In this document: in pieces, positions 23,901 through 29,900 of the stretch | Layout: the number at the start of each line of letters is the position of its first letter | Numbering within the stretch: position 1 is the stretch's first letter | Source of the DNA: Nitrospirota bacterium | GTDB lineage: Bacteria; Nitrospirota; Nitrospiria; Nitrospirales; Nitrospiraceae | Direction of reading: 5' to 3' | Length of the DNA: 64,000 nucleotides | Assembly (NCBI GenBank): GCA_963701855.1 | Contig: CAVPBK010000004.1 | Coordinates: 160,001 to 224,000 of the forward strand | Program-made: the position numbers

Positions 23901-26900
23901 TACCCAATGCCAGTTCGCCATGATCGATGGCGGGACCGTCGGCTAAGACCTGTCCCACTTTCACGGGCTGCCCAAGCCGAACCACTGGCGTCTGCGTAAT
24001 GGTCGTACTTTGATTCGATCGCTGAAACTTGATCAGATCGTACACGTCCAAGCCGGCATCATTTCTTTTCCGACCTTCTTTCGAGTCGGCACGCACAACG
24101 ATCCTCGTGGCATCCACGCTTTCCACGACACCGGCACGCCGGGCCTGCACGACATAGCCCGAATCACGCGCGACCACGGTTTCCATTCCCGTACCGACTA
24201 ACGGAGCCTCCGACTTAAGCAGCGGCACCGCCTGACGCTGCATGTTCGATCCCATCAAGGCACGGTTGGCGTCGTCATGTTCCAAGAACGGCACCAAGGC
24301 AGTAGCCACGCTCACCACCTGTTTCGGCGACACGTCCATGTACTCGATCTTATCTGAGGTGGCTGTCACGAAATCTCCGGCAGCTCGCGCCGAAATATTT
24401 TCGGATACCAGGCGGCCAGACGCATCCACTTTGGAGTTCGCCTGTGCGATGATGTACTTATCCCCTTCGATCGCGGAAAGAAACTCGATTTCGTCGGTAA
24501 CCCGCCCCTTCACCACTTTGCGATATGGCGCTTCAATAAATCCAAACTTATTGATGCGCGCATAGGTCGCCAACGACGTGATCAAGCCGATGTTCGGGCC
24601 TTCCGGCGTTTCAATCGGACAAATACGGCTATAGTGCGAAGGATGGACGTCGCGAACTTCGAACCCCGCTCGCTCTCTGGTCAACCCGCCGGGACCGAGC
24701 GCAGAAAGCCGCCGTTTGTGTGTAATTTCTGCGAGCGGGTTCGTTTGGTCCATGAATTGAGACAGCTGGCTGCTGCTGAAGAACTCTTTCACGGCAGCGA
24801 CCACGGGCTTCGCATTGATCAAATCGTGCGGCAGCACTGTTTCCATATCCAGCAGATTCATCCGTTCCTTGATACTGCGCTCCATGCGGACTAACCCGAG
24901 TCGGAATTGGTTCTCCAACAACTCGCCGACCGAACGGACACGACGATTGCCCAGGTGGTCGATGTCGTCGATTTCGCCCTTGCCCAGTTTCAAGTTCACG
25001 AGATAGCGAATCACCTCGACCATGTCCTGCGCCGTTAGCGTCCGCTGCTCCAGCGGCAGATCGAGACCCAGCTTCTTATTCAACTTCAGGCGCCCAACCG
25101 GCGAAAGATCGTACCGCTTGGAGTTCATGAACAGATTGTCGAAGAGTGCTCGCGCCGTGTCGACTGAGGGCGTTTCTCCCGGCCGCAAGCGGCGATAGAT
25201 CTCGACCATCGCCTCCTCTTTGGAGACGGTCTTATCCATCTCCAAGGTGTCCAGAATCACCGGCGTCGATGTAACCGTATCGAAGTAGATCGCCTTGAAT
25301 TCTTCAATGTCGCTTTCGAGCAGCGACTCGACAATCTCAGCGGTGAGCCGCTGATTTTTCTCAGCTATCTTGTTTTTCTTTGAATCCACCAGTTCGGTCA
25401 GGACCGCACGACCGACCAATTCGCTCGGCGCAAGCGGGATTTCCTTCACGCCAGCCGCCTTGAGCTTTGCGATGAGCCCCTTCGTAAGCTTGGCGCCTTC
25501 CCGCACCAATGGTTCCTTGCCGCCTTTTTCTAACACTTCCGCCGAACAGCGCAGACCCTGATGAATCTCAGGGTCGAGTTTTCGCAGCATCTTGCCCTTG
25601 GCGATCCGAATCTCCTCGACCGGGTAATACATCTTGAGCAAATCGTCGCCCGAATACCCGAAGGCCTTCAACAGAATGGTCGTCGGCATTTTTCGCCGAC
25701 GGTCAATGCGCACATAGAGAATATCGCGAGCATCGAATTCGAAATCCAACCACGATCCGCGATAGGGAATGATTCTGGCAGAGTACAACACCTTGCCGCT
25801 GGAGTGCGTCCGGCCCTTATCGTGCGTAAAAGACGCCCCCGGAGACCGATGCAACTGACTGACCACCACACGTTCCGTGCCATTGACAATGAAAGTTCCC
25901 CGCTCCGTCATGAGCGGCAGCTCGCCGACGTAGACTTCCTGCTCTCGGACGTCGAGCACCTTTTTCTTGGAACCCTTATCTTCCTTGTCGAACACGACCA
26001 AGCGTACTCGGAGCTTGAGTGGAACAGCAAAGGTCATTCCCTGTTCAAGGCATTCTCGCTCATCGTACTTTGGGGTGCCGAGCGTGTAGCTCGTAAACTC
26101 CAATACGGCCGTATTGTTGTAGTCCGGAATCGGAAAGACGCTCGCCAGGGCTGCCTGGAGCCCATGATCTTTGCGACGTTCCGGCTCGACCTCCCGCTGA
26201 AGAAATTCTTCATAGGAGCGCTTCTGGATCTCAATAAGATCGGGAATTTCGATGCTGCTATGAATGCGAGAGTAGTCTTTTCGCTCGATAAACTCTTGCA
26301 GAGTCGTTTCGGACATTCGCCGGTCCTCCACTACACAATGGGCAAACTTGGGCGCCCGCACATGGCAGACGCCCACAGATTCTAGAGACTGGTCAAATCG
26401 AGACTACTTGATCTCGACCTTGGCGCCGCTCTCTTCGAGCTTCTTCTTCATGGTGTCGCATTCTTCCTTCGTCACACCGGTCTTCACAGGCTTTGGCGCG
26501 CCTTCGACCAGATCCTTCGCTTCCTTCAACCCGAGGCTGGTGAGTTCGCGAACGACCTTAATGACTTGGATTTTCTTGTCCGCCGGAGCAGACACAAGCA
26601 CGACGTCGAACGCTGTCTTCTCTTCAGCTGCAGCGGCGGCACCCCCACCTGCTGCAGGAGCGGCAGCAGCGACCGGTGCGGCAGCAGTGACGCCGAATCG
26701 AGCCTCTAACCCCTTCACGAGTTCTGCTAAATCGAGCACACTCATCGTCTCGATGGCCTTGATTAACTCTTCCTGTGATAATTTTGCCGTGGTCGTTGAC
26801 ATGTCCCCATCTCCTTTTCGTTTGTCTTGAATGGCTGCAATGACTCTCACAAATTTCGACAAGACCGCGCTAAGCGTATACACCAGGCCACGCGCCGGTC

Positions 26901-29900
26901 CCTGCATGGCCGACAATAACATCGCAATGAGAACTTCCTTCTTCGGCAGCTTCGCAACCGCCGCCAACTCAGCCGGCTGCACCACCTTGCCTTCCAACAC
27001 ACCGATGGTGATCTTAATCTTCTGTTCGCGCTTCTCCGCCAGAATAAAATCCCGAAGGATCTTGGTGGGGAGCACCGGATCGTCATAGCCGATCACCAGC
27101 CCCGTCGGTCCCTTAAGATACGTCTTCACCCCTGAAAGGATCGTGCCCTCAGAAGCACGGGCAGCCAACGTATTCTTCACGACCTTGTATTCGGCTTTGG
27201 CGCCTCGCAACAGCTTGCGAAGTTCCGTAACCTGGTTGACGGAAAGCCCGGCACTTTCGGTGACTATGGCAAGCCGTGCACGACCGAATGTCTCCGTCAA
27301 CTCTGCAACGGCTGTCGATTTCTCGTCCTTATTCATAATCGAACCCTTCCCCTTCCACGCGGCAACACCCCGACTAACTCCACTCCTTGGCTAACGCAAT
27401 GGCGTCAAGCTTCACCCCAGGCCCCATCGTGCTCGAAAGAGTCGCGCTCATCAGATAGCGCCCTTTGCACGAGGCGGGCTTTGCTTTGATCACGGCCTCA
27501 AGAACCGCCGCAGCATTGTCATAGAGCTGCTCAGGCTGAAACGATACCTTCCCGACAGGCACCTGAATGATTCCGGCCTTTTCAACCTTGTACTCCACAC
27601 GACCCTTACGGATTTCCGACACGGCCTTGCCGACGTCAAAGGTCACGGTCCCGGTCTTCGGATTCGGCATAAGCCCGCGAGGGCCCAGAGCCTTTCCGAG
27701 CTTCCCGACGGCCGCCATGAGATCCGGAGTCGAAATGGCACAATCGAAGTCCAGCCATCCACCCTTGATCTTTTCCATCAAGTCATCGGACCCGACATAG
27801 TCCGCTCCGGCTTGCCGCGCCTCCTGCTCCTTCTCTCCCTTGGCAAAGACCAGCACGCGCACTTTCTTCCCCGTGCCATGCGGCAGCGAGGTCGTGCCAC
27901 GCACCATTTGGTCCGCACGTTTAGGATCGACGCCTAGGCGAAGCGCCAGATCGACGGATTCATCAAACTTTGTGAAGGCTGAACGCTTCACCGCCTCGAC
28001 TGCCTCACGCAGAGCATAGGTCCGAGGTTCAAGCTTCTCAACTGCCGCTCTCATCTTCTTCCCCATTTCCGTTCTCCCCTCTACACCATCGCAAATTCTG
28101 GATCGGGCAGTACGTGGCAGTCCTGCCTGATCTAACGCCTCACCCTTGAACTACCACTCCCATACTGCGCGCCGTCCCCTCAATGATCTTGATCGCCCCC
28201 TCAAGATCGACGGCATTGAGATCCGTCAGCTTTTTTTGTGCGATCTCACGCAACTGCGCCTTTGTAATCTTTCCGACCTTGTCTTTCTGGGGAACACCTG
28301 ATCCCTTAATGATACCCGCAGCCTTCTTCAAGAGATCGGACGCCGGCGGAGTTTTCATCACAAAGGTAAACGACCGGTCCTTGTAGACCGTGATGACCAC
28401 CGGGATGATGCTATCCCCTTCTTTTTGCGTCTTCGCGTTGAACTGCTTGCAAAACTCCATGATGTTGACACCGTGCTGACCCAGCGACGGTCCGACAGGG
28501 GGAGCCGGGTTTGCCTTCCCGGCTGGAATCTGCAACTTAATCTGTGCCGATACTTCCTTGGCCATGTCCTACACTCCTACCCGCGTTCGACCATTTCGGA
28601 GGTTAAATCCGCTCAACTTGCAAAAACCCAAGCTCCACCGGAGTGGAGCGTCCAAAAATACTGACCAGGACTTTAAGCCGGGCATGGTCCTGAGCCACTT
28701 CGTCCACCACACCATTAAATCCAAGAAACGGCCCATCGATGATCCGCACATTATCCGTCTTGATAAATTTGACCTGTTCACGTGGCCCGGACGCTCCCAC
28801 ATCAACCTGCTTCAACAGCGACTCTACTTCGCCCATCGACAAGGGTGTAGGCTGCGCACCAGCGCCGACAAATCCTGTGACCTTCGGCGTCTCTTTGATC
28901 ATCTGCAAGGTCTCATCGATGAGCGGGGACTCCAACTCCACAATCACATAACCCGGGAAAAACTTTCGTCGAGACGTTCGGCGCTTACCGTCCTTGATCT
29001 CGATCACATCCTCCGTCGGCACGAGTACCTGTCCCAGCTTCTCAACCAATCCCATTTGATTGGCTCGTTCCAGTAAGCTGGTCTTCACCCGTCCCTCGAA
29101 GCCTGCGTAGGTATGAATGACGTACCAATTCTTTGCCATGCCCTACCCTCGGATCATTGGTTGACTGTATGTCATGCGGAGGCTCTCACTTCCTGATATC
29201 TGTCTATATAATCTTGCTCACTACCCATACGAGAATCGAGTCGACGGCCGACAGATACAGAGACATGATGATGCAGAAGACAATGACCACTGTCGTGGAC
29301 CCGATCGTTTCGGCCCGAGTCGGAAACGACACTTTCTTCAACTCTCCACGCACATCGATGAAGAACTCTCGGATAGAATCCGTAAACTTCCTGAACATGC
29401 GCACCTCACCTTCGCTTCTTAGAGAGAGAGAACGCGCTTCGCCCCCTCACCTCGCCCAACTTCCCCGCTCGCCACAAACCTACTCGCAATCTACCGTCGG
29501 TATTGATCCTGACCCTTCCACTACCCAGCGATTGGCAGGGGCACTAGGATTTGAACCCAGACTCTCGGTTTTGGAGACCGATGTGCTACCATTGACACCA
29601 TGCCCCTACGACGGCTGACACCCAGCCATTGAGCCGGCAGCCCAACTTACTTCACTTCCTTATGGGCAATGTGTTTCCGACAGAACTTGCAGAACTTATT
29701 CCGCTCAAGCCGATCCGGATCGTTCTTCTTATTCTTCATCGTGGAATAGTTCCGCTGCTTGCAGATCGTGCATGCCAAATCAATGATCTCTCGCATCTCA
29801 ATACTCCCATGCCGTCATACGACAACAGTCAGATTTATGCCAGAATTTCGGTGACGACGCCGGAGCCGACGGTCTTGCCGCCCTCGCGCACCGCGAACCG

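Follow-up and report, generated by a model that had tools for sequence, protein, structure and literature searches.

A fused rplJ-rplL gene conserved across the order Nitrospirales probably encodes an L10-L12 fusion protein together with free L12

In the Nitrospirota genome analysed here, the genes for the ribosomal stalk proteins uL10 and bL12 (rplJ and rplL) form one uninterrupted open reading frame (ORF) of 310 aa on the minus strand, at 26404..27336 of the window, that is, of the whole 64,000-nucleotide stretch of DNA under study. We consider it likely, with a probability of roughly 0.7, that this single ORF yields two products, an intact uL10-bL12 fusion and free bL12 arising by nested initiation. 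Nitrospira-type ribosomes would then probably carry one permanently tethered L12 arm beside free arms. Among ribosomal proteins, L12 alone is present in several copies, and in Bacteria the stalk is regarded as a non-covalent complex. A natural covalent L10-L12 that has shown no reversion in the order of Nitrospira and recurs in unrelated phyla provides material for asking what number of L12 arms is required for translation, whether exchange of the arms is necessary, what fixes the ratio of 1:4-6 and what takes the place of feedback through the L10 leader. Depending on the pipeline, the gene is annotated as a single 310-aa 'L7/L12' or as the 133-aa piece alone; as a result, rplJ seems to be missing, and the N-terminus of free L12 is missing from the databases used in proteomic searches.

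The initial annotation had described an in-frame fusion of 310 codons without a stop after L10, and the ORF was found as described, the minus strand being added here; the Pfam spans given for it (L10 at residues 1-97, L12_N at 188-234 and L12 at 243-310) were also reproduced. The first moiety (codons 1-178; 26803..27336) is a full-length uL10, matched at residues 5-173 by the NCBIfam L10 equivalog NF000955 with 162 bits against a cut-off of 85; archaeal L10 models match residues 3-99 alone, with 24-29 bits against cut-offs of 341-381. The nested bL12 ORF (132 aa and a stop; 26404..26802) exceeds the cut-off of the L12 equivalog TIGR00855 at residues 184-310 (151.8 versus 84.4 bits) and has all its parts, namely the dimerisation domain (residues 188-234, including the first part of the Ala-rich hinge; 26635..26775; PF16320), the hinge itself and the C-terminal factor-binding domain (residues 243-310; 26407..26610; PF00542). 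PF27436 is listed among the precomputed Pfam matches of Nitrospira proteins. The stop codon that separates the two genes in the canonical rplJ-rplL layout is absent from the locus, so that one L12 would be covalently attached to L10. A tblastn search of the genome found no second copy of L10 or L12, which makes the fused ORF the sole copy of both. The neighbouring genes lie on the same strand: upstream are rplK (uL11; 28140..28565; PF03946 and PF00298) and rplA (uL1; 27374..28066; PF00687), and downstream is an ORF at 22360..26316 which, from its translation, we take to be rpoB, its start being set at the ATG at 26316 behind GGAGG. Promoter and terminator scans of 26200-29800 stayed at chance level, and within the L10 half they revealed no promoter-like site able to give an L12-only mRNA.

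The L12 half retains its own initiation signal, as had been claimed. Codons 174-179 read AAA GGA GAT GGG GAC ATG, in which the Shine-Dalgarno (SD) sequence AAAGGAG (26811..26817) codes for Lys174-Gly175-Asp176 of the fusion and the ATG of codon 179 (26800..26802), from which free bL12 is predicted to start, lines up with the beginning of L12 in split sister genomes; the 16S rRNA of the same genome ends in GATCACCTCCTTT at its 3' end. The ATG is present in 54 of 54 fused loci at amino acid identities down to 55%, the Lys codon at -5 is AAA in 53 of the 54 (2-59% AAA in the remaining 23 conserved Lys columns), and the Gly codon at -4 is GGA or GGG in all 52, although these counts, like the locus counts below, overstate independence, the sampled genomes being related. 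The first test applied was the SD duplex energy, which was -9.85 kcal/mol compared with -4.3 at other in-frame starts but was not better than expected from synonymous recoding (mean z -0.44). An exact-match test was chosen after it, and both are reported: an exact SD core of at least 5 nt at a spacing of 3-12 nt was found in 57 of 58 loci, compared with 36% expected from synonymous recoding and with 20 of 343 other in-frame ATGs. In addition, mRNA folding near the internal start was weaker than in recoded controls in 57/58 loci, and in one family (f27) the SD lies in a different codon phase, AAG GAG GAN NNN ATG (K-E-D/E). The fixation of synonymous codons, the weak mRNA structure, the phase-shifted SDs and the exchange of GTG for TTG in a further lineage (see below) indicate that the internal L12 start is under selection at the nucleotide level; a conserved SD and start codon inside an ORF, selected in this manner, are what nested initiation leads one to expect.

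The fusion proved to be a trait of the whole order Nitrospirales, as proposed initially. A single stop-free match over residues 1-310 was obtained in 39 of 41 genomes of the order, the other two being cut by contig ends but open across the junction, and every Nitrospirales junction that was read, from all four families, was open and fused. Outside the order, the Nitrospirota were split at all 13 loci read; five such genomes, in which L12 lay in a seemingly long open frame, turned out to be split on reading. When nine of the 18 order genomes that gave no match were searched again, they again gave none; the five tested lacked L1 as well, and four of those five lacked rpoB, which implies assembly gaps. 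RNA-run contigs bridge the junction without an indel, as had been noted before (record 4 of X1 covers 26710-26977 with three differences and no gap), and their depth provides no basis for ranking the L10 and L12 halves.

The L10 part of the fusion aligns without gaps up to its end with T. maritima L10 (1zav; residues 3-173 against 5-178), and the L10 proteins of B. subtilis and E. coli, which are two-dimer types, align up to residue 159 only. T. maritima L10 is described as binding three L12 dimers (PMC1635324). The L12-binding helix of the fusion (residues 133-173; 26818..26940) thus appears to be of the long T. maritima type, which would seat three L12 dimers, and such a helix would need free L12. 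The single-chain AF2 model is of low confidence (pLDDT 60.6, below 50 in the linker), informs on secondary structure only (helices 133-145 and 148-173) and is silent on a seating of the tethered L12 in cis; a fold search with it returned L10 and L12 structures. Prediction of a complex of residues 1-234 with four copies of 179-234, run with no alignment, scored 0.21 and is given no weight here. In the two-product reading, initiation at codon 1 would give the intact fusion, whose uL10 would bind 23S rRNA and hold one bL12 covalently through a linker of about 14 residues, and initiation at the internal SD and ATG would supply free bL12 in excess. The likely stalk would be (uL10-bL12)(bL12)5, with the tethered bL12 most simply occupying one seat of the distal dimer. 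Such a gene could have originated when the rplJ stop was lost, the rplL SD having already shifted to a position abutting or overlapping the end of rplJ.

At the protein level, the 311-aa fused entry was detected in the N. marina proteome. Its protein-level spectral count came to 0.268 spectra per residue, which places it 15th among 47 ribosomal proteins, at 1.25 times the median of the other 46; a linear 1:6 ratio would put it at 3.1 times. The shortfall is weak evidence against an excess of free L12, because counts of spectra compress differences in abundance: by this measure, the free L12 of three ammonia oxidisers stood at 0.8-1.9 times L1, though at 2.0-3.4 times L10. The searched supplement files of PMC9381531 and PMC11410670 contained no row for the fused protein.

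In both E. coli and B. subtilis, regulation of rplJL is ascribed to the L10 leader (PMC4538822). The spacer between rplA and rplJ measured 37 nt (27337..27373, minus strand), in agreement with the initial annotation, which leaves no room for such a leader. The Rfam L10 leader model RF00557 had no match at E ≤ 1 over 20000-33000 of the window, although this model is weak in Nitrospirota, since among eight split loci L031 alone matched, below threshold. Across the order the spacer is 19-121 nt (57 loci), compared with 178-289 nt in nine split Nitrospirota.

The earlier caveat that the fusion may have arisen elsewhere was borne out. Fused loci were found in two groups of Armatimonadota (21 of 201 genomes), in Dehalococcoidia (4/201) and in one further lineage, and the L10 tree places at least five origins of this design in several unrelated bacterial groups. 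The SD core precedes the L12 start in 20/21 fused loci of the phylum Armatimonadota and in 4/4 of Dehalococcoidia, with ATG in all 25. In a lineage whose junction lacks Met, six of seven distinct loci read GGA GGA NNN GTG and the remaining one reads GGA GGA AAC TTG; GTG accounts for 54 of its 199 Val codons, yet the junction swaps Val for Leu and stays GTG or TTG. In-frame near-fusions, with a stop 0-3 nt upstream of the L12 start and the SD within rplJ, occur in unrelated split genomes (L073, L086, L126, L215 and L219). Four long-frame L12 candidates from other phyla (L199, L200, L226 and L227) proved to be split, and what looked like L1, L10 and L12 in one frame in G449 was a run of N, the spacer value of that genome being left out.

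As to the cause of the fusion rather than its mechanism, it may be nearly neutral, with an easily lost stop, a harmless tether, fixation by drift and no special function. We place this at somewhat below even odds. The near-fusions are in keeping with it, as are the scattered origins, some of them in small groups such as Dehalococcoidia, and the loose relation to spacer length: the spacer is ≤43 nt without fusion in 8 of 49 other split loci, and fused Dehalococcoidia retain 167-238 nt. However, not a single reversion was seen in the Nitrospirales junctions read, even though one substitution would turn AAA or AAG into a stop and leave the SD intact, which suggests that the tether has by now become necessary or advantageous. 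More tentatively, and rather on the unlikely side, covalent attachment of L12 to the stalk base at least five times could be an adaptive, P0-like convergence, in which the tether seeds assembly of the stalk in cis, ensures one factor-binding arm on each ribosome when free L12 is scarce or exchanging and, in Nitrospirales and one Armatimonadota group, makes feedback through the L10 leader dispensable by way of the two-start ratio.

With respect to the mechanism, the internal start might be used while the fusion serves as a precursor cleaved in the linker, giving an ordinary non-covalent uL10(bL12)6 stalk. The linker (about residues 174-187) is predicted to be disordered and is rich in Lys and Arg, as such a reading would have it, but the junctions vary by family and lineage (KGEGDM, KEDSM, QGGSQM, GLEGTM, GGSV) with no shared motif, the SD accounts for the junction residues, and each of the five origins would require a protease site. 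We regard cleavage as improbable. It is a good deal less probable that the internal signal is vestigial and that the fusion alone is made, so that each ribosome has a single tethered L12, which may pair with the L12 of spare fusions. The fused entry shows no strong excess in the proteome, and a sole L12 copy could in principle be supplied 1:1; nevertheless, the four marks of a selected initiation signal set out above speak against it, and the complete three-segment helix that has been retained would be idle without free L12. Equally hard to sustain is a scheme in which translation yields free L10 as well, through a programmed frameshift or early termination in the purine-rich stretch at the junction, the fusion being a minor read-through product. 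Many junctions contain AAA AAG AAA with the A-AAG tetramer, which is presumably slippery, and a -1 frame stop lies within two codons of position -8 in 25/54 loci. However, Arg (CGG or CGA) replaces AAG in 20/54 loci, that of the window included, the distance to the stop ranges from 0 to over 90 codons in the -1 frame and is 8-27 codons in the +1 frame, the motif is absent from the other fused lineages, and the RNA-run contigs show no junction indel; a conserved slippery site with a conserved shifted-frame stop is thus not what these loci hold. Finally, a sequencing or assembly artefact, for which nothing speaks at the locus itself beyond the general fact that the 50% library does include some fused proteins which are plainly frameshifted chimeras, is refuted to near certainty by the fixation of the fusion over four families, its recovery from closed genomes as well as independent RNA-run contigs, and the 691-member cluster to which the protein belongs.

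The fusion itself is already known as a database annotation. Entries of Nitrospira japonica, N. moscoviensis and strain KM1, which are 85-89% identical to the ORF and belong to the same family, carry the NCBI label 'Fused 50S ribosomal proteins L10 and L7/L12 (Modular protein)'. This label says nothing of the internal start, of fixation across the order or of the other lineages, which are added here. Our literature search found no paper on a fused L10-L12, and the label phrase was likewise absent from the papers searched; the passages searched of PMC7203096 and PMC3353972 do not mention L10/L12, and PMC13001810 does not contain 'fused', 'fusion' or 'Nitrospir'.

The canonical stalk, uL10(bL12)4 or uL10(bL12)6 in E. 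coli, B. subtilis and T. maritima (PDB 1ZAV/1ZAW/1ZAX), for which L10:L12 forms of 1:4 and 1:6 are described (PMC1635324), has the same domains and the same rplKAJL-rpoBC order, and the fused gene shares the long helix with the T. maritima type; it differs in lacking the intergenic stop and room for an L10 leader. Nested in-frame starts in SpaO/YscQ (long and short), CcmM58/35, CheA L/S and IF2 alpha/beta likewise give two co-assembling products from one ORF, SpaO in a ratio of one long to two short from an internal GTG (PMC13515050, a review that mentions neither 'ribosomal protein' nor 'L12'). In the present case, however, two once-separate conserved ribosomal genes appear to have merged, and the old start to have turned internal. 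Archaeal uL10 and eukaryotic P0 are likewise stalk bases bearing their own factor-binding tail, a C-terminal extension of 80-100 aa similar to the C-terminal part of the stalk proteins in the same organisms and stated in PMC1635324 to be nonexistent in Bacteria. The Nitrospirales extension is a whole bacterial bL12, including the dimerisation domain, rather than a homologue of aP1/P1/P2, and its free form would come from the same ORF; by these homologies, the likeness to P0 is convergent and not homologous.

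The fused L10-L12 ORF of the window (310 codons, positions 26404-27336, minus strand) lies between rplA (27374-28066) and rpoB. It carries the Pfam domains L10 (1-97), L12_N (188-234) and L12 (243-310), and the NCBIfam equivalog models for L10 (5-173) and L12 (184-310) both exceed their cut-offs on it, which upholds the single reading frame described in the initial annotation. When each half was used as a tblastn query against the whole genome, only the fused locus was recovered. The junction was also bridged, again as annotated, by a contig from an RNA run of an unrelated study (X1 record 4) with three differences and no gaps, such a contig being no measure of transcript or level. 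Codons 174-179 read AAA GGA GAT GGG GAC ATG, and the 3' end of the 16S rRNA of the same genome, GATCACCTCCTTT, is complementary to AAAGGAG. A precomputed Pfam match, PF27436, lies between L10 and L12_N in Nitrospira homologues (window 26377-27373) and was absent from our own Pfam search. Elsewhere in the window, upstream of the tRNA-tuf cluster, we observed an ORF of 297 aa (31963-32856, minus strand) that contains a HELFH motif and may begin with a signal peptide, and a 717-aa ORF (33241-35394, minus strand), which from its translation we take to be a UvrD/Rep-like helicase.

The phylum search covered 201 Nitrospirota genomes, 41 of them in the order of the window, its own genome included, and 160 outside it. 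A single stop-free 1-310 match was found in 39 of the 41 order genomes, and in the other two, contig ends truncate the ORF but leave the junction open, whereas no stop-free full match was present among the matches listed for the 160 others. All 13 non-order loci that were read, including all three same-class genomes, were split. Both the order-wide occurrence of the fusion and its confinement to this order within the phylum, as initially proposed, were thus borne out, the latter among the matches listed. Five of these 13, in which L12 lay in an apparently long frame, were rejected as fusions, since they proved split on reading. In a wider search 283 of 301 order genomes gave a match; the 150 matches listed were all stop-free, 149 being full length and one cut. 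Among 20 more order genomes re-checked (the weakest or two-piece matches plus two small families), ten were full length and stop-free (five from family f28, four from f27 and one from f2), eight were partial but open across the junction, and two lacked junction coverage. One locus (G362:C151:3686-4529) shows a break of the reading frame between residues 53 and 81, within L10; this assembly is 82% complete and the break is probably an assembly error. When nine of the 18 matchless genomes were searched again, the fused ORF was still not found; L1 was also absent in all five tested and rpoB in four of those five, which points to assembly gaps. No reversion to split rplJ and rplL was seen among the order junctions examined.

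The initial annotation had also placed a Shine-Dalgarno (SD) sequence and an ATG at the L12 start of the fused loci, and this held. The junction codon was ATG in all 54 distinct fused loci (amino acid identity down to 55%), the Lys five codons ahead of it was AAA in 53 of the 54 (23 other conserved Lys columns: 2-59% AAA), and wherever Gly follows it (52 loci) the codon is GGA or GGG. The SD duplex energy was -9.85 kcal/mol at the internal start and -4.3 at other in-frame starts. Against synonymous recoding this measure showed no excess (z -0.44), because the junction amino acids are purine-rich anyway. With a stricter definition, chosen after the duplex-energy test (exact core of at least 5 nt, spacing 3-12 nt), the SD core was present at the internal start in 57 of 58 loci, versus 36% after recoding; it occurred at 20 of 343 other in-frame ATGs and at only 20 of 58 L10 starts. 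The internal ATG sits in the least folded stretch of the ORF (27 loci profiled), and in 57 of 58 loci the recoded controls were more strongly folded there. These loci come from related genomes, and the counts are not independent trials. In family f27 the SD lies in a different codon phase (AAG GAG GAN NNN ATG, K-E-D/E-S/P-M), which implies that the nucleotide signal and not the peptide is conserved. In family f28 (L229-L233) the SD is weaker and split (AAAGGA NNN GGAGAG ATG), and in three of the five loci another in-frame ATG stands three codons ahead of the L12 start. Nested initiation is strongly supported by these sequence comparisons.

The number of L12 dimers is reportedly set by the length of the L10 helix (work attributed to Diaconu 2005 and Davydov 2013). 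Alignment of the L10 half with T. maritima L10 is gap-free to the end; the alignments of B. subtilis and E. coli L10 stop at residue 159. According to PMC1635324, T. maritima L10 carries three L12 dimers and other L10 proteins (B. subtilis, E. coli) two. A 1:1 fusion would occupy one of six seats and cleavage alone cannot supply the others, so free bL12 would be required beside the fusion to fill the stalk. We favour, with a probability of roughly 0.7 (0.72), the reading that the one ORF would give both free bL12 and an uncut uL10-bL12 chain, assembled as (uL10-bL12)(bL12)5. In the protein-level counts taken from PMC8115632, a 311-aa 'L7/L12' of N. marina has about 83 spectra, which shows that this entry is expressed; per residue this is 1.25 times the median for 46 other ribosomal proteins and 1.7 times the L1 value, whereas a linear 1:6 ratio predicts 3.1. 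For three ammonia oxidisers whose L10 and L12 genes are separate, the data drawn from PMC5960693 put L12 at 2.0-3.4 times L10, against only 0.8-1.9 times when L1 is the reference, and the N. marina counts do not favour one reading over another. Cleavage of the fusion after synthesis is improbable. Beside a selected initiation signal a vestigial internal start is hard to credit, and a frameshift yielding free L10 is equally so.

The caveat that the fusion may have arisen outside the order proved justified. Among the best 150 rows of a 50% representative library, 46 had both domains; after removal of Nitrospira fragments and evident frameshift chimeras, about 21 further full-length fusions remained at 33-46% identity. 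Thirteen of the 19 looked up were singletons at 90% identity, and the named members belonged to Armatimonadetes, Fervidibacterota, Dehalococcoidia and Bipolaricaulia. Genome searches bore these fusions out. Stop-free full matches were found in at least 21 of 201 genomes of Armatimonadota, the phylum of the Fimbriimonas genome used for the search, in two groups (2 and 19), and in at least 4 of 201 of the class Dehalococcoidia. The L12 start was ATG in all 25, and an SD core preceded it at 20 of the 21 Armatimonadota and all 4 Dehalococcoidia loci. A further lineage (metagenome contigs L260-L267) has no Met at the junction: six of seven distinct loci read GGA GGA NNN GTG and the seventh GGA GGA AAC TTG. 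In these ORFs GTG accounts for 54 of 199 Val codons, and TTG for 30 of 203 Leu codons. Here the junction residue varies and a start codon is kept. In this lineage the GTG or TTG follows GGAGGA by only 3 nt, and the L12 N-terminus starts right at helix 1; the fusion in the P0022 cluster (16 members) has a much longer junction, with about 15 additional residues between Met and the first L12 helix. The best 80 of 600 GTDB stretches held four fused loci, all Nitrospirales-type, indicating that the fusion is rare overall. The searches also returned split L10 proteins with a long acidic Ala/Pro/Glu-rich C-terminal tail (L199, L226, P0144 and similar), a second kind of bacterial L10 extension, and library entries 593-1056 aa long in which an L12 C-terminal-like domain occurs in 5-8 repeats (P0019, P0040, P0047, P0060, P0062, P0143).

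On an L10 tree (70 chosen rows, LG+G4, fused and split labels fixed beforehand, run after a first quick tree), the fused state required four changes in every bootstrap tree, three of them forced by well-supported branches, and a single fused clade was rejected (p-AU 0.031). A quick tree including the GTG lineage gave five changes and the poorly resolved L12 tree six. In five split loci from the GTDB scan and phylum searches (L073, L086, L126, L215, L219), the SD of rplL falls within the last part of rplJ, and the L12 start is preceded at 0-3 nt by an in-frame stop, fusion being one substitution away; such arrangements are likely precursors. In the 57 fused loci of Nitrospirales the rplA-rplJ spacer measured 19-121 nt, versus 178-289 nt in nine split Nitrospirota. 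For the larger of the fused Armatimonadota groups it was 14-67 nt, versus 178-388 nt in nine split relatives. In fused Dehalococcoidia the spacer is still 167-238 nt long and gives an L10-leader match below threshold, rplA is not found upstream in the small Armatimonadota group, and spacers of at most 43 nt occurred without fusion in 8 of 49 other split loci. In the small Armatimonadota group (L151, L152), rplJL lies away from rplA, behind a membrane-protein gene. An L10 leader regulates rplJL in other bacteria, as described in PMC4538822. The space for it was lost in two of three assessable fusion origins, which is a lead and not a rule.

A single ORF with a selected internal initiation signal is fixed in the order and recurs in other phyla; this is a real variant of the ribosomal stalk, reached repeatedly by convergence, and its tether may be adaptive or a tolerated accident. 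The fusion has been flagged in databases (in NCBI the proteins from N. japonica, N. moscoviensis and KM1 are labelled 'Fused 50S ribosomal proteins L10 and L7/L12') and is apparently unstudied, as we found no paper on it or on the internal start in the open-access literature. The fused ORF would work in the manner of SpaO/YscQ-type nested initiation (PMC13515050). The fused L10-L12 also resembles archaeal and eukaryotic P0, a tailed stalk base, although the tail is not homologous.
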